DNA from: Candidatus Parcubacteria bacterium
GTDB taxonomy: Bacteria > Patescibacteriota > Saccharimonadia > UBA4664 > JBIOIQ01
Assembly (NCBI GenBank): GCA_963718875.1
Contig: OY970378.1
Span: 324,396-388,395, forward strand
DNA length: 64,000 nucleotides
Direction: 5' to 3'
Positions 5,741 to 59,921 of this stretch are shown one piece after another (position 1 is the stretch's first letter; every line of letters begins with the position of its first letter). Under the pieces are notes generated by a model. It had not been told where the DNA came from. It saw nothing but the letters and a program-made list of their open reading frames with translations, and did not search any database. Both the position numbers and the translations under genes were made by a program.

Positions 5741-5761
5741 AGCGCTGATTGCAAGACTCGT

Positions 5762-5832
5762 GGATCCCCGATCCGGAGCGTCCAATTTTACATTTATGGT
5801 TATTGCCTTATGTGCTCCGATCGAGGATGACG
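5762..5832. repeat. family A palindromic element (GGATCCCCGATCCGGAGCG ... GCTCCGATCGAGGATGAC)
   Basis: Inverted arms. Related to 31601-31651. Confidence 0.55.
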
Positions 5833-6557: not shown

Positions 6558-6641
6558 GAAGTCTGACTTCAATCTTGAGTATAAAAAAACTGGACTTGAA
6601 GTCGGACTTTAATCTGGAGATAGAAGTCAGACTTCCATTTT
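6558..6641. repeat. family B hairpin element (GAAGTCTGACTTCAATCT ... CTTGAAGTCGGACTTTAATCT ... AGAAGTCAGACTTCC), three-arm copy
   Basis: Repeated AAGTC(A/T/G)GACTT arms. Confidence 0.55.
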
Positions 6642-7524: not shown

Positions 7525-8106
7525 GTGAAACCAAAGAAAGGCCAGGCTTTAAACCCAAGTGAGCCTAACAAAATATCAAGACCTGGTCTTGGGACGTTCT
7601 GGATAGTTCTTGGTATAGGGCTTTTAATTGCTTGGTTGATGATTCCCGTGGGTGGACTTGTCGTTCAGGCTTGGACTTGTCGTAATGCACCTGGGGTTTT
7701 AGTAGAAGGCGTCGCTTACCCCGACGTTTATAATAACTGTGGCTCGTATAGTGGTGATGTATATAGAGGGTTGTTTTTCTTAAGTTTTATTGCAACTCCG
7801 ATCATACCTGTGGGTTCATTTTTGGTATGGCGTGGGTTGAAGCGACGACAAAAAAATAGTCATGGTGTATCGTTACCAATTAAAGGTTTGTCGATAGTCC
7901 CGATGGTTTACGCAGTTGGATTGATCTTTTTGGCATTAATGTCGGCATTGGCTACCTTGATATATAGTGGTGAGAGGGTTAATGGCGGGCTAAATAGTAG
8001 CTTTTGGTTTTTCTTAATCGTAACGCTCTTTTGGTCTGGAATGGCTTGGATTACCTATAAAAGCGCAAGGAAATCACAGCAACTTGTTAAGGTCAGTAAG
8101 GGGTAA
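7525..8106 (+). CDS. hypothetical integral membrane protein
   Basis: GTG start with TAAGGAGAG Shine-Dalgarno. Four predicted TM helices. The N-terminal 20 aa are near-identical to the thrS N-terminus. Confidence 0.55.
   Translation: MKPKKGQALNPSEPNKISRPGLGTFWIVLGIGLLIAWLMIPVGGLVVQAWTCRNAPGVLVEGVAYPDVYNNCGSYSGDVYRGLFFLSFIATPIIPVGSFLVWRGLKRRQKNSHGVSLPIKGLSIVPMVYAVGLIFLALMSALATLIYSGERVNGGLNSSFWFFLIVTLFWSGMAWITYKSARKSQQLVKVSKG
7543..7594 (+). repeat. 52-nt segment near-identical to the thrS 5' coding end (copy in the upstream membrane-protein gene)
   Basis: CCAGGCTTTAAACCCAAGTGAGCCTAACAAAATATCAAGACCTGGTCTTGGG versus 8147-8198. About 45 of 52 nt identical. Both copies are in frame and encode LNP(S/G)EPNK(I/R)SRPGLG. 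Confidence 0.8.
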
Positions 8107-8117
8107 GGAGGAATGTC

Positions 8118-10133
8118 ATGAGCACACAAAACAATCAAGATAAAGACCAGGTTTTAAATCCGGGCGAGCCTAACAAAAGATCAAGACCTGGTCTTGGCGT
8201 TGAGGCAGATGAACTATACGCTATGCGGCACTCGCTAGCGCATATTATGGCTACAGCCGTAGAGGAGCTGTGGGCTGAGGCTAAGTTGGGCGTGGGACCG
8301 GTTATAGAAAACGGATTTTATTACGATGTGGATTTAGGCGAGACTAAGATATCGGAAGAAGACTTTACCAAAATTGAATCTAAAATGCAGGAAATTATTA
8401 AGGCTGACCAGCCTTTTGAGTGTTTCGAAATGCCGATTGATGAGGCTGTAGAGTGGGCCAAGGAAGCCAAGCAGCCGTATAAGCAAGAGTTGTTGAATGA
8501 CCTTAAGGAGCATGGCACTACGGTGATGAAGGATATTGATGCAAGTTCGCTAGGAGTAGAGTCTAGTTCTCGTCGTACCTCCTCAAACAATGAAGGTGAG
8601 AATCAAAATTCTGAGTCAGGTGAGGATGCTGGATCTGAGGCGTCGAAGGTTAGTGGTCAAATGTCAAATGTTACTCAGGTGTCGTTTTACCGTAACGGGC
8701 CATTTACTGACCTGTGTCGTGGTCCGCACGTGGAGTCGACCGGTAAAGTTGGGGCTTTTAAGCTGATGAAGGTGGCTGGTGCTTACTGGAGGGGGAAAGA
8801 GACCAATCCTCAAATGCAGCGGCTGTATGGGGTGGCATTTGCCACTAAAGAAGAGCTGAAGAGTTATCTTGAGACCATGGAAGAGGCCAAGAAACGGGAT
8901 CACCGTAAGCTTGGGCAGGAGTTGGATCTCTTTACGTTTTCGGACTTAGTCGGTCCAGGATTACCTCTTTATACTCCTAGGGGTACTGTGCTTATAGAAG
9001 AACTAAAAAAAGTATTGCGCGAAATTAGTAATCGTTATGATATGTTGCTTGTTTCGATTCCTCATATTGCAAAAATTGAGCTCTACCAGACATCTGGCCA
9101 TGCCGATAAGTTTTCTGATGAGCTATTTCATGTTAAGAGTCATTATGATCAACCTTTCGTGATGAAGCCAGTAAACTGCCCACACCATACTCAAATTTAT
9201 GCTGCGCGGCCGCGTAGTTACCGTGAGCTACCATTGCGCTATATCGAGCAAACAATGCAATATCGCGACGAGAAACCTGGTCAAATAGGCGGTTTGCAAC
9301 GAACAAGGGGCTTTACTGTAGATGATGGTCATACGTTCTGTCGTGTTGATCAGATTGAACAGGAAGCCTCTATGTCGGTGGAGGTGATCAAGGATTTCTA
9401 TACTAACTTAGGCCTCTGGGGTGAGCATTGGGTGTCGTTATCCGTTCGAGAGCCTGGTGCCCAAGACAAGTATATTGGCCTTTCTGAAGACTGGGATAAG
9501 GCTGAATCCATGCTTGACGAAGTCTCTACCAAATATGGGTTGAACGCAAAACGGATGGAAGGTGAAGCTGCCATTTATGGTCCAAAGCTCGACTTTATGT
9601 TCAAGGATGCGCTGGGACGAGAGACTCAACTGGCTACGGTACAGCTGGATTTTGCCATGCCCAAACGTTTTGGACTAACTTATACTGACGAAAATAGCGA
9701 GTTAATACCACCCGTAATGATTCACAGAGCCATTCTAGGCTCGTTTGAACGCTTCATAATGCTTTTAATTGAACATTTTGCGGGCAAGTTCCCGGTTTGG
9801 CTGGCGCCAGAGCAAATAAGAGTAGCGACGGTAAACGACTCCAAAAAATTGGAAGATTATGCCAGAGTGCTTGTGAAGGACATGAAGGAAGCTGGGTTGC
9901 GTGCGGAGCTTGATCTGTCGAATGAGAGTGTGGGTAAGAAGATCAGAGCGGCAGAACTTTACAAGGTTCCTTACACGCTTGTGGTGGGAGAAAAAGAGCT
10001 GGAAAGTGGCAAAGTTACGCCTAGAGTGCGCAAGGATTTGGCCACAAGTGAGCCTTCTGAGTTGGAAGTAGATAAGTTTATTCAGGTCGTGGCGGGTGAA
10101 GCAAAGTCACGGGCGAGTAAAGCGAGCTTATAA
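8118..10133 (+). CDS. thrS: threonine--tRNA ligase
   Basis: Editing-domain motif HSLAHIM, class II catalytic core and C-terminal anticodon-binding domain. Perfect TAAGGAGG Shine-Dalgarno. The TGS N1 domain is absent and there is a Ser/Glu-rich low-complexity insert. Confidence 0.9.
   Translation: MSTQNNQDKDQVLNPGEPNKRSRPGLGVEADELYAMRHSLAHIMATAVEELWAEAKLGVGPVIENGFYYDVDLGETKISEEDFTKIESKMQEIIKADQPFECFEMPIDEAVEWAKEAKQPYKQELLNDLKEHGTTVMKDIDASSLGVESSSRRTSSNNEGENQNSESGEDAGSEASKVSGQMSNVTQVSFYRNGPFTDLCRGPHVESTGKVGAFKLMKVAGAYWRGKETNPQMQRLYGVAFATKEELKSYLETMEEAKKRDHRKLGQELDLFTFSDLVGPGLPLYTPRGTVLIEELKKVLREISNRYDMLLVSIPHIAKIELYQTSGHADKFSDELFHVKSHYDQPFVMKPVNCPHHTQIYAARPRSYRELPLRYIEQTMQYRDEKPGQIGGLQRTRGFTVDDGHTFCRVDQIEQEASMSVEVIKDFYTNLGLWGEHWVSLSVREPGAQDKYIGLSEDWDKAESMLDEVSTKYGLNAKRMEGEAAIYGPKLDFMFKDALGRETQLATVQLDFAMPKRFGLTYTDENSELIPPVMIHRAILGSFERFIMLLIEHFAGKFPVWLAPEQIRVATVNDSKKLEDYARVLVKDMKEAGLRAELDLSNESVGKKIRAAELYKVPYTLVVGEKELESGKVTPRVRKDLATSEPSELEVDKFIQVVAGEAKSRASKASL
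8147..8198 (+). repeat. 52-nt segment, thrS copy
   Basis: CCAGGTTTTAAATCCGGGCGAGCCTAACAAAAGATCAAGACCTGGTCTTGGC. Confidence 0.8.
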
Positions 10134-10134
10134 A

Positions 10135-10162
10135 CTGTCATCCCGACCGTAGTGGAGGGATC
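10135..10162. repeat. family A element, short copy after thrS (CTGTCATCCCGACCGTAGTGGAGGGATC)
   Basis: GTCATCCCGACC head shared with other copies. Confidence 0.45.
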
Positions 10163-10181
10163 TAACGAAAGGGATTGATAG

Positions 10182-10847
10182 ATGTCTCGACTCATTCGAC
10201 AGGCTCAGAGTTTACAACAAGCTCGACATGACAATATAAAGCCGGTCATTGCGGTTGATATTGATGAAGTGTTGGTTCCTTTTGCTGAAGGGTTCATAGG
10301 GTTTTACAACCAGGTTAATGGTACAGCTTATGAGCTGGCTACTACACAAGTGTATCGGCTTGAAGAAATCACCGGAGATACGAAAGAATATATGTTAGAG
10401 ATGGTGCATCAGTATCATGCGCTGGTAGAGCGTCGAGCTGACCTGCCTATCGAAGGTGCCGTAGATGCCATTAATCGGTTACTTATGTACTACGAGGTTG
10501 ATATTGTAACTTCAAGGCGTTATGTAGAGCTTGAATTTACACACAAGTGGCTTAGACAGAATTTTCCGAAAGTATTTCGAAAGGTGCATTTTATTCGCGG
10601 ACCTGATGATGGAAATGTAATGACAAAATCAGAGATATGCCAGCAAATAGGGGCAAAAGTACTGATTGAGGATCAGTTAACGTATGCGCTCGATGCTGCT
10701 AAATCCGGCATTAGGGTGTTGCTCTTTGGAAGCTACCCTTGGAACCAGATTGATGTTTTGCCCCACAACGTGAAGCGAGTTTATAATTGGGATGAAGTAC
10801 TGCAAGATTTAATTGGTTTAAAAAATTCTGAAACGACCGTCGGCTGA
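10182..10847 (+). CDS. HAD-superfamily 5'(3')-deoxyribonucleotidase-like protein (NT5C family)
   Basis: N-terminal DxDxV motif (IAVDIDEVL) and overall NT5C-like length and pattern. Confidence 0.55.
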   Translation: MSRLIRQAQSLQQARHDNIKPVIAVDIDEVLVPFAEGFIGFYNQVNGTAYELATTQVYRLEEITGDTKEYMLEMVHQYHALVERRADLPIEGAVDAINRLLMYYEVDIVTSRRYVELEFTHKWLRQNFPKVFRKVHFIRGPDDGNVMTKSEICQQIGAKVLIEDQLTYALDAAKSGIRVLLFGSYPWNQIDVLPHNVKRVYNWDEVLQDLIGLKNSETTVG

Positions 10848-10876
10848 CGGTTCAGGATGACAGCTAGGAGTATGTA

Positions 10877-11548
10877 ATGCCGTCAAGTACGGATAATGAG
10901 TTGATTTTGATTGGGGGTGGGGCTACAGGCCAAGTGGCTGAGTATTTGGCGTCTAAAGCTGGCGGTGAGGTTGGTATAGTGACGTTTGCTCTGGATGATC
11001 CAAAAACCTATATTGCTCAAAAGACTGAAGTTTTTTCTGAGTACAACTGTAAGGTTAGACATGTAAACGAGATAGATGACCTAGAAGGGCTTTCATTGGT
11101 GTTTTACGCAGGAGGGGACCAGATTCGGTTAGCATTTCAACTGAAACAAACTGGCATTCACTCTGAGTTAGTAAAATGGTGGCGCAAAGGCGAGGTTATT
11201 TTAGCGGGCTCTAGCGCCGGAGCGATGGTGATGTGCGGCGTGATGTTGGAAGAAGACAGCGATGAAAATTATGGCAGAGTGGGGATTGATTTGACTCATG
11301 GTTTGGGGCCGATTGGGAGTAGTATTATAGCGCCGCATTGGTCGGAACGGTCTAGTTCTGAGTGGCGCGGCAAGCTGATCAGTGAGTATGGCGAGGCTTA
11401 TTATATTTTTGGGATCGATGAAAATACGCTTTTAAGTTGGCGGGCAGGGAAGTGTAGGGTTGTTGGGGAGGGGAAGGTTCATGCTTTTGGGCGGATGATG
11501 GGTACTTGGGGTGATGGTGATGAGTTCACAGTGGCTCGGGGTTTTTAG
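10877..11548 (+). CDS. peptidase S51 (dipeptidase E-like) family protein
   Basis: GSSAG nucleophile-elbow (ILAGSSAGAMVM) and class I glutamine-amidotransferase-like fold pattern. Confidence 0.6.
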   Translation: MPSSTDNELILIGGGATGQVAEYLASKAGGEVGIVTFALDDPKTYIAQKTEVFSEYNCKVRHVNEIDDLEGLSLVFYAGGDQIRLAFQLKQTGIHSELVKWWRKGEVILAGSSAGAMVMCGVMLEEDSDENYGRVGIDLTHGLGPIGSSIIAPHWSERSSSEWRGKLISEYGEAYYIFGIDENTLLSWRAGKCRVVGEGKVHAFGRMMGTWGDGDEFTVARGF

Positions 11549-11598
11549 CTAGCTCGCATACCATGATCCCGAACTTACTCCCTGATCCCGAACTTACT

Positions 11599-11618
11599 CC
11601 CTGAGCATTGTCGAAGGG
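11599..11618. repeat. family C motif, copy 2 (preceded by direct repeat GATCCCGAACTTACTCCCTGA x2 at 11565-11606)
   Basis: CCCTGAGCATTGTCGAAGGG. Confidence 0.6.
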
Positions 11619-11778
11619 TCTTATAACCACCCAGACTCTTTTAATAGGGTAGTTTCGCGCTGTTTTTGGCGTATCAACCTATCAACCTAACTGTCTAACT
11701 ATTTTATGAAATTAATGCTCAAACTACTCGAGGAAGTACTGATATACCAACGAGGAGGAGTAAGTCGATTTTGGTTTT

Positions 11779-11822
11779 TATACTACGAAAAGCAAATTTA
11801 TTATACTTTTTCGTAGTATAAT
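11779..11822. promoter_or_regulatory. 15-bp perfect inverted repeat operator overlapping a TATAAT -10 box, immediately upstream of the PadR gene
   Basis: TATACTACGAAAAAG at 11779-11792 and CTTTTTCGTAGTATA at 11806-11820. TATAAT at 11817-11822 lies only 7 nt before the ATG at 11830, implying a leaderless or near-leaderless transcript. Confidence 0.5.
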
Positions 11823-11829
11823 ATTGAAA

Positions 11830-12180
11830 ATGAACATCTCCTCGCGCGAAGAATATATACCTTTGACTCCTCAAGCTGGAGCCGTCCTGTTAGCACTAGC
11901 GGATGGTCCAAAACACGGCTACTGGATTGTACAGTTATGCCGAAGTGACTCAGATGACATGCTTGTTATGAGTACCGGCTCGATATACCCCATACTAGAG
12001 CGATTAAAAGCTCAAAAGTTAATTGAGGAATTTAGAAGTGAAATTGGCACATCATCACCTTTTAAAAGAAAAATGTATATGCTAACAGGTACGGGTAAGA
12101 TGGTTTTGGAGCGAGAGATGGATCGCCAAGCTAATTTTGTGGCTTTGGTTAGATTTCGATTAAAAAAGCACAATGTCTGA
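11830..12180 (+). CDS. PadR-family transcriptional regulator
   Basis: Winged-HTH PadR pattern (PLTPQAGAVLLALADGPKHGYWI ... SIYPILERLKAQKLIE). Confidence 0.75.
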   Translation: MNISSREEYIPLTPQAGAVLLALADGPKHGYWIVQLCRSDSDDMLVMSTGSIYPILERLKAQKLIEEFRSEIGTSSPFKRKMYMLTGTGKMVLEREMDRQANFVALVRFRLKKHNV

Positions 12181-12547
12181 GCTCGATAGCAGTTTTAAGC
12201 AAGATGTTTACGCCATCGTTGCACTAATTCCTTCCGGTAGAGCCATGACTTACGGTCAAATTGCTGCATTATGTGGTCACCCTCGAGCAGCCCGTCAAGT
12301 CGGCCAAATAGCCCATTGGGGCCCACAAGAATTGCCATGGCACAGAGTTGTTAATAAAAGTGGTGGCCTCGCAGGTGCGTTTACAAGTGGCGGAAGGCAG
12401 GCTCAGGCTCAAATGCTGCGTAATGAAGGAGTTCAGGTGTCGTCAAATCACATTATTGATATAAAAAACTTGATCTGGTGGCCTGAAGATAGTATCTTGT
12501 CTCAATCTGTCATCCGAGCAGAGATCGAGGGATCTCCCAGTGAATAA
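12173..12547 (+). CDS. alkyltransferase-like protein (ATL; MGMT DNA-binding domain with Trp replacing the active Cys)
   Basis: PWHRVVN motif in place of PCHRV. Overlaps PadR by 8 nt and miaA by 8 nt, so it sits in an operon. Confidence 0.7.
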   Translation: MSELDSSFKQDVYAIVALIPSGRAMTYGQIAALCGHPRAARQVGQIAHWGPQELPWHRVVNKSGGLAGAFTSGGRQAQAQMLRNEGVQVSSNHIIDIKNLIWWPEDSILSQSVIRAEIEGSPSE

Positions 12548-13437: not shown

Positions 13438-13488
13438 TGTCATTCCATATCGGAAGCGAGGTACGAGCGTTCCGGGTAGGGAATCCAG
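13438..13488. repeat. family A element between miaA and murT (TGTCATTCCATATCGGAAGC ... CCGGGTAGGGAATCC)
   Basis: Inverted arms. Confidence 0.5.
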
Positions 13489-13546: not shown

Positions 13547-15010
13547 ATGTTTCTGATGATCATTTGGTTAGCAAAGCTGGCTGGAACGTTGAGTCGGCTT
13601 TTTGGTAAAGGCGGCGGATCGGCCTTGCCGGGTTTGTTGGCTGAACAAAGCGACGATAATATTTTGACTCAACTCGGTTCGCGATTAAAATATGGCTCAA
13701 TCGTTATTACCGGTACAAATGGTAAAACAACAACCACCAAAATGGTTTGTGAAATTCTCGAATCTGTAGGCTACAAAGTTATAACTAACCAATCGGGCTC
13801 AAATTTGAGTCGCGGAATTGTTTCGACTTTAGTTGAAAAAATCAGCTTGACCGGTAATTTTAGTGCTGAACTTGGTGTTTTTGAAGTGGACGAAGCTAGT
13901 ATGCCGGCAGTGTGTGCTGCCCTCAAGCCTAAAAGCGTGATGGTTTTAAACTTGTTTCGGGATCAGCTTGATCGCTATGGCGAGTTAGATCAGACGGCCG
14001 CCATGATAGGTAAAGCGATTTCGCCACTTGAGACCGAGCTGTTTTTGAATGCCGACGATCCGTTGGTGGCTAGTCTGGCCAGATACTGCAAACCTCAAGA
14101 CCAGGTCTTAAGTCCAGATGTTTCAAGTTCTCGTGTCAAGGCCTGGTCTTTGAACCCTCGTATCCATTATTTTGGGGTTGAAGCCGCAAAAACCCTAAAA
14201 CTCGATCACGATCTAGCGGCAGATTCCGATCATTGTCCGTTTGATGGAGCGGCTTTGCACTACAAGAATAATTTTTTTGGACATATTGGGCACTATGTCT
14301 GCCCGAACGGTGATTTTGAGCGGCCGAAAACCGAAACAAGCTTAGTGGAATATAAAAACGGCCAGCCTTTTAAGCTTAAAAGTGAAAATGGCGGTGAAGC
14401 TAAGCTTTATTTACCGCTGCCAGGCCTCTATAACGCCTATAACGCTCTGGCGGCGGTAAGCCTCTGTGAAACGCTGGGTATTACAGTTGAAAGGGCTGCA
14501 AAGGCTTTAGAACGCGTTACAGCGGCCTTTGGCAGGGTAGAGAGACTGGAAATTGAAGGCAGGACTGTTTACTTGCTTTTAATTAAAAATCCGACTGGCT
14601 TTAACCAAGTGATTCAGACCTTTTTGACCAGTAATAAAGCTCATAGCATTATGGTAGCCATAAACGACAATTTTGCGGATGGACGAGACGTGAGTTGGTT
14701 GTGGGATGTGGCAATTGAAGAGTTGCGAGTTCAACACCCGTCGTCAAACGTTAAAGGCCCTAAACCGGCAGTTGGCAGTGTTGGACACAATATTGTAGTG
14801 AGTGGCGATCGAGCGCTTGATATGGGTTTACGCTTTAAGTATGCGGGGCAGGCAGTGGCGATCGAGACTAATTTAGAAGCGGCTTTTAATCAAGCTGTTA
14901 GATCTGCCTCTCCTGGTGAAACGGTGTATGTACTCCCGACTTATACGGCCATGTTGGAATTACGCGAACGTGTTAGAACACTAGGCCTTGTTAAAGGCTA
15001 CTGGTCATGA
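13547..15010 (+). CDS. murT: lipid II isoglutaminyl synthase, Mur-ligase-like subunit MurT
   Basis: Mur ligase P-loop GTNGKTTT, central Cys-rich ribbon (CPFDG...HYVCPNG) and C-terminal DUF1727-like region. Confidence 0.8.
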   Translation: MFLMIIWLAKLAGTLSRLFGKGGGSALPGLLAEQSDDNILTQLGSRLKYGSIVITGTNGKTTTTKMVCEILESVGYKVITNQSGSNLSRGIVSTLVEKISLTGNFSAELGVFEVDEASMPAVCAALKPKSVMVLNLFRDQLDRYGELDQTAAMIGKAISPLETELFLNADDPLVASLARYCKPQDQVLSPDVSSSRVKAWSLNPRIHYFGVEAAKTLKLDHDLAADSDHCPFDGAALHYKNNFFGHIGHYVCPNGDFERPKTETSLVEYKNGQPFKLKSENGGEAKLYLPLPGLYNAYNALAAVSLCETLGITVERAAKALERVTAAFGRVERLEIEGRTVYLLLIKNPTGFNQVIQTFLTSNKAHSIMVAINDNFADGRDVSWLWDVAIEELRVQHPSSNVKGPKPAVGSVGHNIVVSGDRALDMGLRFKYAGQAVAIETNLEAAFNQAVRSASPGETVYVLPTYTAMLELRERVRTLGLVKGYWS

Positions 15011-15937: not shown

Positions 15938-15992
15938 TAAGTCAGACTTCAAATCGGATTGCTTTGGCTATCCAAGATTAAAGTCTGACTTA
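15938..15992. repeat. family B hairpin element (TAAGTCAGACTTCAAATCGGATTGCTTTGGCTATCCAAGATTAAAGTCTGACTTA)
   Basis: 11-bp inverted arms AAGTCAGACTT/AAGTCTGACTT. Confidence 0.6.
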
Positions 15993-16307: not shown

Positions 16308-16988
16308 TTATTTGTCGAAGCCTTTGCGAACCCGGGCTAAAATATCTGCCGCTAGGTCTCGGCCGCCGAGTCCAAATGCCAAACCACCGGCTAGGGCTAA
16401 CATTACTACCACGGCCGTAAATAAGCGGTCGAGGAAGATGGTGTTGACGCCTAGCTGAGCTAAGGCAGTAAAGGTTACAACCGCCCAAATTGCGTACTTA
16501 GCAATGTTTCCGAGCAGTCCTGCTACACTTGCGCCCATAGCGCGGGCAGCGTTAACAACTACTCGACTGGTTAGATCTGCAACTACACCACCAGCAAACA
16601 GCACAAAGGCGGCTGCAATGACGCTAGGGATGTAGTGGAGCAATCCTTGAACGAGGTTGTTGACCTCAAGGACATGAGCAATCGTAAACGCCTGGAGTAA
16701 GAAGACAATGATGAAAAACCATTTAACGAGATCGCCCAATAGTTCTACAATGTCGTATTTACCCGGGAAAACCGACTCCAAACGTACTTGTTTAGCTAGA
16801 GATCCTAGCTTGATTGCTCGAAGCAAGCGGACGATTAGGCCTTTTAGGACCACCCCAACTACCACACCGATAAGGAACACGACTACGGCAGCTAGGACGT
16901 CTGGTACGCCTACTACAACTTTACGTAGGGCGTCACTTACGCCTGATTGAACAACTTCTGCCCAACTTGAAATGTTTCCAGAATCCAT
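16308..16988 (-). CDS. membrane protein with repeated conserved TM-helix motifs (mechanosensitive-channel-associated TM_helix-like)
   Basis: AAGGAGGTGATAT Shine-Dalgarno before the ATG at 16988. Multiple amphipathic/TM repeats. Confidence 0.45.
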   Translation of the reverse strand: MDSGNISSWAEVVQSGVSDALRKVVVGVPDVLAAVVVFLIGVVVGVVLKGLIVRLLRAIKLGSLAKQVRLESVFPGKYDIVELLGDLVKWFFIIVFLLQAFTIAHVLEVNNLVQGLLHYIPSVIAAAFVLFAGGVVADLTSRVVVNAARAMGASVAGLLGNIAKYAIWAVVTFTALAQLGVNTIFLDRLFTAVVVMLALAGGLAFGLGGRDLAADILARVRKGFDK

Positions 16989-17225
16989 TCTTATATCACC
17001 TCCTTTCTTGATAGGATATCTTGGTAATACTCTATAAAGGTTATGCTTGTCAAATCCGAGCACAACTTTTACGAATAAAGAATATTGAATAAAGAATTAT
17101 GGGTCACGCATTTGAAGGCTGAAACCATAATCTAAATTTATAATCTAGATCCCGGTGTTGTAATGTGCAGGGGTTTGCTATAATCAGCGCATAGGTTAAT
17201 AAGTGTTCATGAGTGGGAGAGGGCG

Positions 17226-18516: not shown

Positions 18517-18600
18517 GCAATCTCTAACAACTAAGTACCAAATCCGAAAGAATCATCCAAGTCCTAACGTTTGAAACCTGAATCAAGAAACTCCCAACCA

Positions 18601-18667
18601 GTCATTCCCTATCGGAAGCCAAACTCTACCAATGTCTAGTTTGGTGCTCCGGATAGGGAATCCAGTT
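18601..18667. repeat. family A element (GTCATTCCCTATCGGAAGCC-aaactct ... agtttgg-TGCTCCGGATAGGGAATCC)
   Basis: Near-perfect long inverted repeat downstream of rpmB. Confidence 0.6.
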
Positions 18668-19096: not shown

Positions 19097-19154
19097 AAAA
19101 GTCGGACTTCAAATCTGGTTTCTAGGACGATGAAGATTAAAGTCCGACTTTAAT
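19097..19154. repeat. family B hairpin element (AAAAGTCGGACTTCAAATCTGG ... GATTAAAGTCCGACTTTAAT)
   Basis: Compensatory change (CGGAC/GTCCG) preserves pairing. Confidence 0.6.
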
Positions 19155-25901: not shown

Positions 25902-27356
25902 ATGCAAAAACGAAGCGAACTTATTTTTAATTTAGCGCTGCTACCAATTGATTTTTTGGCAGTGTTAGCAGCTTTTGTGGCTGCCTACGCATACCGAGTA
26001 AAAATATTAACTACTCCAATTGTTAATCCATCGGGGATTGAGTTGTTTTTAAAGGTCTTTCTGGTGATAGTCCCGGTGTGGATCCTGATATTTGCGCTTT
26101 CTGGCCTCTATAGCCAATCGGTAATGCGAAGTCGTTTGAGCGAACTGGGCAAGATATTTGTGGCGGTGTCAGGGGGAACGATGTTTTTTATTTTGGTAGA
26201 TTTTGCCTCTAGGAAACCAATATTTCCGGCTAAGTCCATTCCGATTTATGGATATATCCTAAGTTTTATATTGGTAGCGCTGGGGCGCGAGGTAGTGAGG
26301 GCAATCCAGCGGTCGTTATTTGGATTGGGTATAGGGGTGCAGCGGACGCTCTTAGTTGGCAGCGGCAAGTTAGCTCAGCGACTATTGGGTGACCTAAAGA
26401 ATACTAAGCGGTCTGGTTATGACATTTTGGCCTCGGTTGATACGGCTAAGAACGCCGAAAAACGTCTTAAGGGTCTAACGGTGTATGCGACATTTGATGA
26501 GGCGCTCGCAAAATGTGGTGAGCTAGACGAAATAATTCAGGCTGATTCTGGGCTGGAGCAAGACGAAATATTGGAAATGATTAATTACGCTAGTAACCAT
26601 CATGTGCGATATCGGTTTGTGCCTAACCAGTTTGGTTTGTATGCCACTGGATCCACCATGGCTGCGATGGCTGGCATTCCAATGATCGAAATCCGGCCTA
26701 CGCCGCTTGATGGGTGGGGGAGGATTATAAAACGCAGCTTCGATATTGTTGGCGCTGGCGTGGGGCTAGTGGTGCTATCACCCGTGTTTTTAATAATCGG
26801 AATTGTTATCAAGCTGACTGATCCGGGTCCAATTTTTTATAAACATAAACGATTGAGTCGCATTGGCAAGGAAATATATGTGTATAAGTTTCGGTCGATG
26901 AAGGCTAAGTATTCGACGGGTGCTGGTTATAGCGGCAAGACGGATGAGGAGATTTTTGCCCAGGAGCTGGGCAAGCCAGAGCTGTTTGATGAGTTTAAAA
27001 AAGAACAAAAATTAATTAAAGACCCGCGAGTGAGTAAGGTGGGCGGTTATTTACGTAAAACAAGCTTGGATGAGCTCCCACAGCTCTACAATGTGCTAAT
27101 GGGCAACATTAGCTTGGTGGGGCCGAGGCCGATTGTTGAGGCAGAGCTGGCACATTATGGAAGTGAAATTTCGACGTTCTTTGCCCTCAAGCCAGGGGTA
27201 ACGGGCTTGTGGCAGATATCTGGACGCAGCGATATTGGTTATGATGAACGAGTTAAATTAGATATTTACTATGTTGAAAACTGGAGCTTACTTCTGGATA
27301 TGAAGATTTTGCTTAAAACAGTGGCGTCGTTAGTGCGCGGCAAAGGGGCTTACTAG
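25902..27356 (+). CDS. polyprenyl-phosphate hexose-1-phosphate transferase (WbaP/WcaJ bacterial sugar transferase family)
   Basis: Four to five N-terminal TM helices and a C-terminal sugar transferase domain (KRSFDIVGAGVGLVVLSPVF ... PGVTGLWQISGRSD). Confidence 0.8.
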   Translation: MQKRSELIFNLALLPIDFLAVLAAFVAAYAYRVKILTTPIVNPSGIELFLKVFLVIVPVWILIFALSGLYSQSVMRSRLSELGKIFVAVSGGTMFFILVDFASRKPIFPAKSIPIYGYILSFILVALGREVVRAIQRSLFGLGIGVQRTLLVGSGKLAQRLLGDLKNTKRSGYDILASVDTAKNAEKRLKGLTVYATFDEALAKCGELDEIIQADSGLEQDEILEMINYASNHHVRYRFVPNQFGLYATGSTMAAMAGIPMIEIRPTPLDGWGRIIKRSFDIVGAGVGLVVLSPVFLIIGIVIKLTDPGPIFYKHKRLSRIGKEIYVYKFRSMKAKYSTGAGYSGKTDEEIFAQELGKPELFDEFKKEQKLIKDPRVSKVGGYLRKTSLDELPQLYNVLMGNISLVGPRPIVEAELAHYGSEISTFFALKPGVTGLWQISGRSDIGYDERVKLDIYYVENWSLLLDMKILLKTVASLVRGKGAY

Positions 27357-27426
27357 TCATGAGTTTTGACTCGAGAGTGGTGAGGGGGGTGCTTTTAGAG
27401 CGGAATTTTGAATCTGGATTTTCTAA

Positions 27427-27534
27427 TTGTCATCCTGAACTCCGTTTTTGTCATCCCGGACCGGAAGGCTTTAGCCGCTCCGGATCCGGGAACCACCAAC
27501 TGACGTGGATCCTGAAACTAGTTCAGGATGACAA
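27427..27534. repeat. family A composite element: outer inverted repeat TTGTCATCCTGAAC/GTTCAGGATGACAA enclosing inner GTCATCCCGGACCGGAAGGC ... CCGGATCCGGG hairpin
   Basis: Nested inverted repeats between the sugar transferase and GT4 genes. Confidence 0.6.
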
Positions 27535-27615
27535 TTCAAAAAAAATAGTTAAATGGAGTAGGTTTTCCTCGCTCTTCATTCATAATTCATCAGTCGCAGC
27601 ACTTGAGGCTTGTAG

Positions 27616-30611: not shown

Positions 30612-30657
30612 TGTCATCCCGGACCAGGAGGCTTTTAGCTGCTCCAGATCCGGGATC
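30612..30657. repeat. family A element (TGTCATCCCGGACCAGGAGGC ... GCTCCAGATCCGGGATCC)
   Basis: Inverted arms. Confidence 0.55.
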
Positions 30658-30680
30658 CAGATTTTTTTTATTTTTTTTAG

Positions 30681-30741
30681 ATTCCCTACCCGAAGCGCCA
30701 AACTAGGCAATGGCAGAGTTTGGCTTCCGATAGGGAATGAC
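30681..30741. repeat. family A element, inverted orientation (ATTCCCTACCCGAAGCGCCAAACT ... AGTTTGGCTTCCGATAGGGAATGAC)
   Basis: Shares the AAACT ... AGTTTGG core with 18601-18667. Confidence 0.55.
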
Positions 30742-30818
30742 GGATAGGGAGGTTGGTTCACGGTGGATTGACTGGGACATACAAGTATCATATGATTCTT
30801 GTATGAATGGAGAATGGT

Positions 30819-31061
30819 ATGGCTACTAAGATTATCAATATTTCTTTGCCGGAGGAGTTGGTGGAGGTTATAGACCTAGAAGCTAAGGATCAATACGCTA
30901 GTAGGAGCGATTTTATTCGACAGACTTTGGTAGAGCGCTTGGCTTTGCGAAAGGAGTTGCAAAGCATACATAAGGAGGTGGCTGCATCTGCCAAAAAAGC
31001 TGGTATTAATACCGATGTAGATGTTGTTAGGGCAATTCGAGAATTACGCGAAGGCCGTTAG
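30819..31061 (+). CDS. ribbon-helix-helix (CopG/VapB-like) antitoxin
   Basis: GGAG Shine-Dalgarno 6 nt before the ATG. RHH pattern (MATKIINISLPEELVEVID ... RSDFIRQTLVERL). Confidence 0.6.
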   Translation: MATKIINISLPEELVEVIDLEAKDQYASRSDFIRQTLVERLALRKELQSIHKEVAASAKKAGINTDVDVVRAIRELREGR

Positions 31062-31468
31062 TGGTAGTTAGGATAGTAATTGATACTAATGTTTTGGTTT
31101 CAGCCTTCAGGTTTAATAAAGATCTTTTAAGTTTGATCGAAACTTGCTTGGCTGATAGTAGTATTAGGGTGTTTAGTTCTCTTGCTTGTTACAATGAGCT
31201 GATCAGGGTGTTGGTAGAAAAGTTTGATATCCCAGAAGAGGTAATTGCATCAGTTGAAAATACTTTTAAGCGCGTTAAGATTGTTAATCCAAGGATTAAA
31301 TTGCAAGTAGTGCGAGATGCATCGGATGATAAGTTTGTTGAGGCTGCTGTTGAGGCAAAAGCCGAATACATTATTTCTGGCGATAAGGACTTGTTGGCTT
31401 TGGGGAGTTATGAGGGGATTAAGATAGTTTCGCCAGCGGAATTTTTGACGGTGCTTGCGGCGAGGTAG
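31061..31468 (+). CDS. PIN-domain toxin (VapC-like)
   Basis: IVIDTNVLVSA N-terminal Asp plus the DDKFVEAA ... ISGDKDLL acidic residues. Start overlaps the antitoxin stop. Confidence 0.65.
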   Translation: MVVRIVIDTNVLVSAFRFNKDLLSLIETCLADSSIRVFSSLACYNELIRVLVEKFDIPEEVIASVENTFKRVKIVNPRIKLQVVRDASDDKFVEAAVEAKAEYIISGDKDLLALGSYEGIKIVSPAEFLTVLAAR

Positions 31469-31526
31469 GTATTTGGATAATCTCTTGCAAGGAGTGGATC
31501 ACCGGATTGTGGTCCGGGGCAGGTTC

Positions 31527-31552
31527 TGAAACTAGTTCAGGATGACAATCTA
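31527..31552. repeat. family A partial copy (CTGAAACTAGTTCAGGATGACAATC), identical to the 3' arm region of 27513-27534
   Basis: 24/25 nt identity to 27511-27535. Confidence 0.55.
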
Positions 31553-31600
31553 GGTAGTTCTCCTGTCGTCGAACAATAGCACTGCGTTATTTTTGTTTCT

Positions 31601-31651
31601 GGGTCCCCGATCCGGAGCGATTGAGTACAATCTTCCGGTCGAGGATGACAG
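31601..31651. repeat. family A element (GGGTCCCCGATCCGGAGCG ... CCGGTCGAGGATGACAG)
   Basis: Near-identical arms to 5762-5832. Confidence 0.55.
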
Positions 31652-43721: not shown

Positions 43722-43775
43722 TTCGACTCACTTTAACTATCGTTAAAGCTCGCTCATGGTAAACCATTCTCCTGT
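43715..43775 (+). repeat. conserved 3'-flank module, tmRNA copy
   Basis: See the copy at 4822-4866. Confidence 0.7.
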
Positions 43776-43804
43776 AAAAAGTGAGGAGAATGACCCTGAG
43801 CTTG

Positions 43805-43822
43805 TCGAAGGGCCATTAAAAG
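43805..43822. repeat. family C motif, copy 4 (downstream of tmRNA)
   Basis: CCCTGAGCTTGTCGAAGGG. Confidence 0.6.
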
Positions 43823-43852
43823 CACCTTCGGAGTCGGTTGCAATTATTTAAA

Positions 43853-43883
43853 CAAAAAAACCTGAGGGAACTCAGGTTTTTGT
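43853..43883. terminator. bidirectional terminator hairpin after ssrA
   Basis: AAAAAAACCTGAGggaaCTCAGGTTTTTGT. Confidence 0.5.
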
Positions 43884-43896
43884 ATTTAAGGAATTT

Positions 43897-44152
43897 ATGA
43901 AGCCTTGGTTTGTTTATATCGCAAAAGCGCGAACTGGCAGGTATTACACAGGAATCACGACTGATTCCGACGAAAGAATCAAAAAACACAATGAGGGCAA
44001 AGGGGCTATGTTTGCAATTGAGCAAGGACCCTTCGAGCTAATATTGTTCTGAGCCTTTTGAAGAAAAATCTGAGGCTAGAATCCGCGAAATCCAAATCAA
44101 GGGCTGGAGTAAGATTAAAAAAGAAAAACTGATTAACGGTGAGTGGGAATAA
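43897..44152 (+). pseudogene. GIY-YIG nuclease-superfamily protein (YhbQ/UPF0213-like), disrupted by a single frameshift
   Basis: Frame 1 reads MKPWFVYIAKARTGRYYTGITTDSDERIKKHNEGKGAMFAIEQGPFELILF then stops. The conserved C-terminus SEPFEEKSEARIREIQIKGWSKIKKEKLINGEWE continues in the +1 frame from about 44041. Confidence 0.55.
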
Positions 44153-59283: not shown

Positions 59284-59512
59284 CGGTGCCCGAAGGAGAG
59301 GATTTGATCCTTAGCCTTCGGGCCTTCTTCGTTCTACTCTAAGAAGTGCATACGGATTCTTTTAACGAGGTAATCCGAATTATTTTTTAGATCCGGGGCA
59401 AGATAAGAGTTCTTTTAATAAGAGTATGGAGGCCTTTATATAACCTGGTACTTTAGTCTTGATTAACCCTAAAAATAAGACCACGACAGGAGTGGGGTAG
59501 TACTTCTGCAGT

Positions 59513-59562
59513 ATTATATCACCAAAAGTACTAATATATTATTACTTTTGGTGATATAATAC
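59513..59562. promoter_or_regulatory. 19-bp perfect inverted repeat operator overlapping a TATAAT -10 box upstream of the second PadR gene
   Basis: TATTATATCACCAAAAGTA at 59513-59531 and TACTTTTGGTGATATAATA at 59544-59562. TATAAT at 59555-59560 lies 7 nt before the ATG at 59568. Confidence 0.5.
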
Positions 59563-59567
59563 TGAGT

Positions 59568-59921
59568 ATGAACATCGCGGACGGAGACAGTTTAATTCCG
59601 CTCACTCCCCAAATGGGCTCAATCTTGTTAGCTTTAGCTGAAAAACCCCAGTATGGCTATGCAATATCGCAGCAGGCAGAAGTTGATAGCAAGGGGGTTA
59701 TTTTGATGAGTGCTGGTTCCTTATACCCTGGCCTCAATCGATTAGAGGCTATGGGTTACATTGAACCTGCGGGTATAGTTAAAGCCACATCATCGCCTTA
59801 TAAGAGAAGGCTGTATCGTTTGACCTTGCGTGGGAGAGAGATACTGGAAATGGAGACCAACAGACAGGCAGAATTTGTGGGATTAGCAAGGTATAGATTA
59901 ATAAAAAACAAGCCTATTTAA
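59568..59921 (+). CDS. PadR-family transcriptional regulator (paralog of the gene at 11830)
   Basis: PLTPQMGSILLALAEKPQYGYAI ... SLYPGLNRLEAMGYIE. Confidence 0.7.
   Translation: MNIADGDSLIPLTPQMGSILLALAEKPQYGYAISQQAEVDSKGVILMSAGSLYPGLNRLEAMGYIEPAGIVKATSSPYKRRLYRLTLRGREILEMETNRQAEFVGLARYRLIKNKPI

Follow-up and report, generated by a model that had tools for sequence, protein, structure and literature searches.

Polar CGTC-tagged hairpin repeats in a Saccharibacteria contig, with a long-form branch that may be read by an Ssn-type nuclease

In this study, a family of short palindromic repeats, here called Family A, was analyzed in a 64,000-nucleotide stretch of contig OY970378.1 (the window), which belongs to a chromosome of the Saccharibacteria (TM7, Patescibacteria) and is the part of the source genome that was seen. 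The window has a G+C content of ∼45% with a positive GC skew throughout, and its Rfam matches are RNase P, the tmRNA and three tRNAs only. From the gene for threonyl-tRNA synthetase (thrS, 8118-10133) onwards the genes follow the order thrS-(nt5c)-ogt-miaA-(murT-gatD)-x-MBL-L28, which is kept in essentially all of 80 related loci. These loci, 1.31 Mb in total, were found with the thrS of the window, and nearly all of them are titled Saccharibacteria, Saccharimonadales or other Patescibacteria metagenome-assembled genomes (MAGs); the best thrS match is 75% identical, and there is therefore no close relative within the species-level collection. The repeats are separated from gene ends by 2-150 nt, and the genes on either side are tandem or convergent; the initial annotation had described them as one family of at least nine abundant palindromic intergenic elements. 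All nine elements are present within a few bases of the positions given for them, and both the family and its abundance were confirmed. The interpretation attached to them, that of an active or recently active mobile element, was partly supported, as set out below.

The census was extended to 13 units at nine intergenic sites, all within 5.7-31.7 kb of the window, which is well above chance. The motif GTCATCCYG occurs seven times versus 0.49 expected. A strict grammar, consisting of GTC, an 8-nt arm beginning with AT and a C after the stem, also matched seven times versus 0.29 expected. Listing each GTCAT[CT]C with its context added two units that had been missed (10822-10862 on the minus strand and 12508-12537 on the plus strand). 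For the longer units a pattern was purpose-built (GTCATYCYNNAYCRG-N10-40-GYTYCRGRTNNGGRANC), since the published pattern for SRM repeats, which is discussed below, gave no match in the window; it matched seven times, compared with no match in 100 shuffles. On fuzzy matching, neither the window nor the 80 loci yielded further, more diverged copies of the long form, and exact, fuzzy and grammar-based scans found no convincing unit in 32-64 kb. The density, first estimated at about one element per 7 kb, is uneven.

Each unit is a single polar DNA hairpin of 24-73 nt, in which a (C/T)GTC tag at the 5′ end and a C(C/T)A tail at the 3′ end are unpaired and the first two stem pairs are A-T and T-A. 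The tag is CGTC or TGTC in 12 of the 13 units and AGTC in the remaining one. CCA and CTA make up most of the tails, and CTG and CTC are among the few others. Two groups can be told apart: seven long units, given as 44-69 nt, all of which fit the long-form pattern, and the remainder, which are short forms. In the long form, an outer stem of the type ATTCCC../..GGGAAT or ATCCC../..GGGAT, which resembles the stem of the Neisseria repeat dRS3, encloses a conserved asymmetric module whose left side reads CGGAA(G) and whose right side reads GCTCCGG, and this module in turn carries at its tip an apical hairpin that differs in sequence in nearly every copy and yet retains its self-complementarity. The long units form 15-24 pairs, and the central part that separates their conserved arm motifs measures 12-37 nt. 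When folded as single-stranded DNA (ssDNA), six of the seven reach -13.5 to -16.7 kcal/mol (z -3.2 to -5.4).

Conservation was followed in two alignments: A1, with the seven long units of the window, and A2, with 21 long units (seven from the window and 14 from metagenomes). In A1, GTC is followed by a stem that always begins with AT, GG-A-(T)-C-(C/T)-A closes the right arm, and the 13 outer pairs are 92% paired, with compensatory change at three of them. All units of A2 have the GTC tag, a T-A pair at the second stem position and a C directly after the stem; the stem likewise always opens with A, whose partner is T in 19 of the 21 units. Pairing was found in 93.7% of the 315 pair cells (15 pairs), and compensatory change affects five pairs (40 cells), a level that none of 500 shuffles reached; when the partner columns are slid by 1-3 positions the pairing collapses. 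Family A is accordingly a polar hairpin family under selection for pairing, in which the tag, tail and inner module are conserved in sequence. Both alignments narrow the GTCATCC(C/T)G head that was originally proposed: its GTC and AT part holds, but the invariant head is (C/T)GTC followed by AT.

The first long unit of the window (5760-5832, minus strand) lies between a 196-amino-acid open reading frame (ORF) and a PcsB-like gene; it matches the long-form pattern, with tag CGTC, outer stem ATCCTCGATCGG.., a 37-nt central part, tail CCA and a DNA fold of -13.5 kcal/mol (z -3.2). The unit at 31599-31650 (minus strand; -14.0 kcal/mol, z -4.0), downstream of rplT, had been called near-identical to it, and the two do have their arms in common, but their central parts differ. 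The unit at 13438-13488 (plus strand, outer stem ATTCCATATCGG..) lies between miaA and murT and is the exception among the long-form folds, with a weak -6.5 kcal/mol (z -1.1). The unit with the AGTC tag (18600-18665, plus strand, ATTCCCTATCGGAAGC..GCTCCGGATAGGGAAT; -16.4 kcal/mol, z -5.4) lies in the spacer where the MBL-fold gene and rpmB converge. Two long units form a tags-outward dimer upstream of an RHH-PIN gene pair: its left half (30612-30660, plus strand; -14.9 kcal/mol, z -4.5) is followed by a T-rich spacer, and its right half (30677-30742, minus strand) folds at -16.7 kcal/mol (z -4.8).

The initial annotation had credited all elements with long inverted arms; this does not apply to three units of 28-30 nt (10136-10165, 12508-12537 and 27506-27533), nor to 31494-31547, which is a short unit with an insert. 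The unit at 10136-10165 (plus strand, TGTC-ATCCC..GGGAT-CTA), which begins 2 nt past the thrS stop codon and has a weak fold, has its head and tail in common with 12508-12537 (plus strand), and the 30-nt form of the two is CTGTCATCC..GAGGGATCT. Of the 124 codons of the ogt ORF, the latter supplies numbers 112-122, and its end lies 2 nt upstream of the miaA start; the ogt domain is confined to residues 7-85/87 (NCBIfam). The short-group unit at 10822-10862 (minus strand, TGTC-ATCCTGAAC..TTTCAGAAT; -7.6 kcal/mol, z -2.9) covers the final 26 nt of an NT5C-like ORF, with the next gene 14 nt further on, and these are the two units that overlap ORF ends. The canonical short unit is 27506-27533 (minus strand), with a TGTC tag, an 8-bp stem ATCCTGAA, a 5-nt loop and a CCA tail in 28 nt, and near-identical copies of it occur in other Saccharibacteria (loci L005 at 9974, L012 at 4937 and L082 at 4857). 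As read from the sequence, 31494-31547 (minus strand) resembles it, with a 25-nt insert between TTTCAG and GATCCAC; the segments 27511-27535 and 31527-31552, previously described as a near-identical pair, agree over 22 nt and then diverge.

Besides single units, tags-outward dimers and nested composites are found. The composite at 27427-27534 is a mosaic of a half short unit on the plus strand, a complete long unit on the plus strand and a complete short unit on the minus strand. The half unit (27428-27441), consisting of a tag and left arm (TGTCATCCTGAACT), pairs with 27518-27534, the head-side arm of the canonical short unit, to give the outer 17-bp stem of the composite. The nested long unit (27449-27496, plus strand) matches the long-form pattern and folds at -15.4 kcal/mol (z -4.4), while the composite as a whole (units 27428-27533) reaches -34.5 kcal/mol (z -9.1). 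Both dimers of the window (27428/27533 and 30612/30742) have their tags outward, as do those in L005, L012, L039, L088, L089 and L092. The composite follows a gene for a WbaP-like protein, and the sole other public contig with an identical protein is Logan ERR12037361 (1815 bp), which ends ∼111 nt past the WbaP-like stop codon and hence inside the composite (25902-27467 in window coordinates); this suggests an assembly break at the repeat.

The related loci were compared at the same gene junctions. In most of the 80 loci the matching junctions are unit-free and measure a few to a few tens of bases, and the long-form pattern has no match in their 1.31 Mb; the strict grammar gave 17 matches in all of them together versus ∼10 expected. 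Compact units do occur sporadically elsewhere in these relatives (L012 at 14415, after murT, and L005, L039, L051 and L071), and L047 carries a short unit (10741) in the MBL/L28 spacer, the same spacer that holds 18600-18665 in the window. Because the junctions of relatives are mostly unit-free and the window is enriched, the copies represent gains specific to the source lineage, in which the family has expanded. A scan of metagenome contigs with the long-form pattern returned 14 loci, of which 13 are genuine; these have the outer stem and inner module in common and differ in the apical hairpin. No long-form unit was found in viral contigs. The holA protein beside the L082 unit has named relatives that are almost all Saccharimonadales or Saccharimonadia, and the contig behind L082, the one that was checked, is Saccharimonadia.

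Most units lie just past stop codons, between tandem or convergent genes, and have stable stems retained through compensatory change; in addition, many REPs (repetitive extragenic palindromes) have been argued to act in transcripts (PMC3733652). Such features would be expected of sites selected by the host, either as stabilizers or terminators at mRNA 3′ ends or as protein operators, that are maintained by selection and not by enzymatic spread. However, no unit has a close T-run after it, and in a scan for G+C-rich hairpins with a direct T-run none was among the terminator-like sites of the window, so that the terminator role first suggested for the elements was not borne out; a T-run is found at a distance only after 30612-30660, and on the antisense strand of 10822-10862. 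Furthermore, the orientation of the units varies with respect to the upstream gene, with seven tags on the plus strand and six on the minus strand. Neither folding energy nor G-U excess favours the tagged strand over its complement, and there is therefore no sign of RNA-only structure; likewise, the transcript-sense strand has no folding advantage. No Rfam family covers the units at gathering or permissive thresholds, and the unit-free junctions in most of the 80 relatives also speak against maintenance by the host. Host-selected sites are thus considered an unlikely explanation.

The spread of the family in one lineage is the part of the mobile-element interpretation that was supported, whereas the label of a miniature inverted-repeat transposable element (MITE) and a partner of the IS200/IS605 or IS630 type were not. 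A true MITE would be a deletion derivative of an insertion sequence (IS) that is moved in trans by a DDE or IS200/IS605/IS630-type transposase, and it would account for abundant intergenic inverted repeats whose copy number varies between lineages and which form nested composites. Target-site duplications and a cognate transposase, which had been proposed as checks, were both sought. The best flanking direct repeats are of 0-3 nt at all 14 units examined, so that no duplication of at least 4 nt was found, and no ORF of the window has a transposase domain. In addition, the units are hairpins of 24-73 nt with an asymmetric tag and tail and not terminal inverted repeats (TIRs) around a body, and the same grammar is found in repeats of distant phyla that were never tied to an IS. 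A MITE origin is, on this evidence, highly improbable. Integron attC core sites (RYYYAAC...GTTRRRY) are not present at the ends of the units, which are YGTCAT and ATCYA. The Coxiella repeats QMITE1 and QMITE2, which were considered because of GC content and palindromes, were rejected: QMITE2 also consists of short palindromic intergenic repeats over gene 3′ ends, with ogt affected in both systems, but its TIRs, its direct repeats of 7-11 nt and its GTAG REP core (PMC5896051) have no counterpart in Family A, and the host here is of the Saccharibacteria.

Units are found where gene content differs from that of relatives, namely at the cyanophycinase (cphE)-like and padR genes, the murT-gatD pair and the RHH-PIN pair. 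Relative to the gene order of the 80 loci, the cphE-like, PadR and mechanosensitive-channel-like genes (10877-12180 and 16308-17063) are insertions, and Family A units lie at or near their junctions. The RHH antitoxin and PIN toxin genes (30807-31468) are flanked on both sides, by the dimer at 30612-30742 and by the units 31494-31547 and 31599-31650, a repeat-gene-repeat layout that resembles the NTS-gene-NTS arrangement in Neisseria. Such positions at synteny breaks, where the cphE-like, padR and murT-gatD genes are present in some relatives only and the RHH-PIN pair is enclosed, would also fit attachment or target sites for a site-specific recombinase or an IS110-family transposase, which would mark points of accessory-gene exchange. 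There are precedents in dRS3 with a Piv-type enzyme of Neisseria filamentous phage and in REPs with IS1111 in Coxiella. However, the window encodes no recombinase or IS110 gene, and a role as targets leaves the multiplication of the targets unexplained. As the sole explanation it is very unlikely; it is compatible with the reading preferred below and not an alternative to it.

The closest known class is that of the CGTC-tagged REPs, which were surveyed by Di Nocera, De Gregorio & Rocco (2013; PMC3733652). These have an unpaired CGTC tag, often TGTC and with the variant CCTC, stems of 8-9 bp in which complementary A and T nearly always come first, loops of 4-5 nt and an unpaired CCA-type tail; they occur mainly as dimers with the tags outside, after ORFs and sometimes within them. 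Their families were reported from five phyla and include the dRS3 repeats of Neisseria (CGTC-1) and the Rickettsia repeats RPE-6 (CGTC-1) and RPE-4 (CGTC-4); no dedicated transposase was found for them (PMC3733652). Family A shares the CGTC or TGTC tag, the AT start (A-T in 19 of 21 and T-A in all 21 units of A2), the CCA-type tail, the tags-outward dimers, the location after ORFs and the occasional overlap with ORF ends. It differs in that seven of its 13 units have stems of 15-24 bp, with the CGGAAG/GCTCCGG module and central parts of 12-37 nt, and in that its host phylum (Saccharibacteria/Patescibacteria) lies outside the five reported. The size rule of CGTC-1 to CGTC-4 (8-9 bp stem, 4-5-nt loop) is obeyed by 27506-27533 only. 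Because its stem and loop sizes exceed theirs, the long form belongs to the superfamily but to none of the four CGTC families. Tags-outward heterodimers of a long unit with a short CGTC-type unit occur in L088 (1756+/1854-), L089 (405+/501-) and L092 (8498+/8580-), and the long form is therefore tied to the same system as the CGTC-type short units; the short partner is NTS-type in L088 and L089 and a shorter CGTC-type unit in L092. In L089 (405-2099) the dimer, of a canonical short and a long unit, lies ∼540 nt upstream of an IS481-family transposase gene, which may be coincidence.

The single protein partner known for this class is a single-strand nuclease of the GIY-YIG type and not a transposase. 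In REPs and REPINs with a GTAG tag, copying is ascribed to RAYT, a Y1 HUH transposase of the IS200/IS605 superfamily, which for Family A would read the hairpin and tag on ssDNA at replication forks. The resemblance to REP, BIME and REPIN elements is considerable, as small tagged hairpins, inverted tags-outward doublets, nested mosaics and persistence within a lineage are found in both (PMC3733652), and the lineage-specific insertion of the units is in keeping with RAYT activity. However, the tag is (C/T)GTC and not GTAG or GGAG, no surveyed species has a RAYT or IS200-type gene flanked by CGTC units (PMC3733652), and a Y1_Tnp domain occurs in no ORF of the window. A bias of the tags towards the lagging-strand template is also absent (7 versus 6). 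Copying by a RAYT therefore seems unlikely; no associated Y1 transposase is known for CGTC units.

The Neisseria repeat has since been redefined as NTS, CGTCATTCCCGCGMAVGCGGGAATCYRG (PMC11893778, Nat Commun 2025). It is bound and cut by SsnA, a 94-amino-acid single-domain GIY-YIG protein, only as ssDNA and on one strand only; the C after the palindrome weighs most in binding and the three bases before the palindrome in cleavage. Across phyla, SRM repeats (Ssn-related motifs) commonly flank the ssn genes, and the system makes transformation with NTS-bearing DNA less efficient (PMC11893778). The GTC-AT...AT-C frame is also that of Family A, and the positions decisive for SsnA, GTC before the palindrome and C after it, are invariant in A2. 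Both systems furthermore have repeats clustered non-randomly around particular genes and belong to host groups that are competent, since Saccharibacteria show ComEC-dependent natural transformation (PMC10633639). The compact units of the relatives read GTCATTCCCGCG(N3)GCGGGAATC(C/T)AG; one of them, in a related Saccharibacteria MAG (L051, 62-89), is an exact copy of the NTS consensus, and L039 (38-65), L012 (14414) and L047 (10740) match it exactly or nearly. Two of these NTS-like units lie within ∼65 nt of a contig end, as would be expected if assemblies break at repeats.

Family A is therefore best understood as the CGTC-tagged REPs of Saccharibacteria, members of the superfamily of dRS3/NTS, RPE-4/6 and SRM, that are probably read as ssDNA by an Ssn-type nuclease; the probability of this reading is estimated at roughly 60%. 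The mechanism is assigned by analogy and with moderate confidence. An Ssn-type single-domain GIY-YIG nuclease, encoded outside the window, would recognize the tagged strand in single-stranded form, bind the stem and the C that follows, and cut immediately 5′ of the GTC tag. Transforming DNA that enters the cell with units on it would thereby be fragmented; this effect is plausible because Saccharibacteria show ComEC-dependent transformation and a PilB-like ATPase is encoded in the window. The same or a related activity would seed new copies, and effects on mRNA 3′ ends would be secondary.

A number of points weigh against assigning the family to an Ssn-type nuclease. No Ssn-type (cd10448-like) gene was found in the window or in ∼1.45 Mb of related DNA in a tblastn search with consensus sequences of small GIY-YIG proteins, and the only match, the sole GIY-YIG ORF of the window (43897-44152), is of the UPF0213 type and frameshifted, with no units by its relatives. 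The part of the source genome examined amounts to 64 kb. The published SRM search pattern, HGTCWYN(0-2)YYVSBRHN(0-5)WNVSBRGN(0-2)RNCYNB (PMC11893778), matches no unit of the window and gives four genuine matches in other Saccharibacteria loci (L012, L039, L047 and L051), and it is an assumption that an Ssn protein would accept stems of 15-24 bp with large apical inserts, which this pattern misses. Furthermore, no enzyme dedicated to CGTC REPs was identified in the 2013 survey (PMC3733652), and the known activity of Ssn is the cutting of DNA and not the copying of repeats (PMC11893778). Finally, the tagged strand shows no bias with respect to replication (seven plus, six minus), and there is no fold asymmetry between the strands.

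A more specific version, in which the Saccharimonadia have their own long-form branch of the NTS/SRM repeats, is offered tentatively and is itself doubtful. A candidate small ssDNA nuclease would read the outer stem together with the CGGAAG/GCTCCGG module and act on incoming ssDNA as a filter of self and non-self in the Candidate Phyla Radiation, and the hypervariable apical hairpin would be the individual signature of a copy or lineage. Saccharibacteria have tiny genomes and are obligate epibionts; in an obligate epibiont with a genome of ∼1 Mb, such a filter could police natural transformation and recombination around accessory genes. What is new here is the long-form branch, in a new phylum, while the kind of repeat itself (CGTC-REP or NTS-SRM) was known.

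CGTC-tagged hairpins were long without an enzyme, until they were linked in 2025 to Ssn nucleases, which restrain transformation in Neisseria by cutting ssDNA as it comes in. If the assignment proposed here is correct, the dense and diversified hairpin population in Saccharibacteria would extend this system to the Candidate Phyla Radiation (CPR), and units flanking variable genes and a toxin-antitoxin pair would provide a handle on the control of DNA uptake and gene exchange. In practical terms, the published SRM pattern overlooks the long form. Should these genomes prove to have no Ssn gene, the maker of CGTC repeats would still be in question, and this lineage would offer a compact setting for the search.

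The GIY-YIG ORF mentioned above lies directly after the tmRNA gene (region 43722-44152). It is a frameshifted ORF of 85 codons (43897-44052 on the plus strand, continuing in another frame to 44152) that resembles UPF0213/YhbQ (Pfam, 2e-15; PDB 1zg2, 1.8e-15), with more than 300 relatives at 61-74% identity, the named ones mostly from several CPR phyla. As a cognate nuclease of Family A it was dropped, since it is UPF0213-type and intact 84-amino-acid relatives have no units within 2-3 kb; a GTCAT-like hairpin on the minus strand (43759-43795) was likewise dropped as a Family A unit, its motif not being conserved in the GIY-YIG relatives. In the loci scanned (L095-L108, with an intact gene in L098, L100 and L107), intact relatives of 84-90 amino acids lie close behind the 3′ end of a tRNA or tmRNA, and in L095 15 nt of the tmRNA 3′ end are repeated on both sides. 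Conserved blocks precede the intact gene, TTCGACTCGC .. GCTCGCTCA-GTAAAC .. CGAA--ACCCTGAGCTTGTCGAAGGGC, the middle one also being written CTCGCTCA-GTAAAC. The gene with its blocks looks like a separate small mobile cassette that targets tRNA-like 3′ ends.

Other palindromes are present in the window. A second family, with arms (A/G)AAGTC(T/G/A)GACTT(C/A)AA, occurs at 6558-6635, 15938-15992 and 19098-19151 and is unrelated in sequence to Family A. A third is built on AAGACCAGGTCTT (CAAGACCAGGTCTTG) and occurs at 7577-7591, 8143-8196 and 14097-14150, with two copies scored as terminator-like on the minus strand. Finally, a 56-nt near-perfect palindrome (59509-59564; 28-nt arms, 96% complementary, no spacer) lies directly upstream of a PadR-family gene (59568-59921) and may be an operator.

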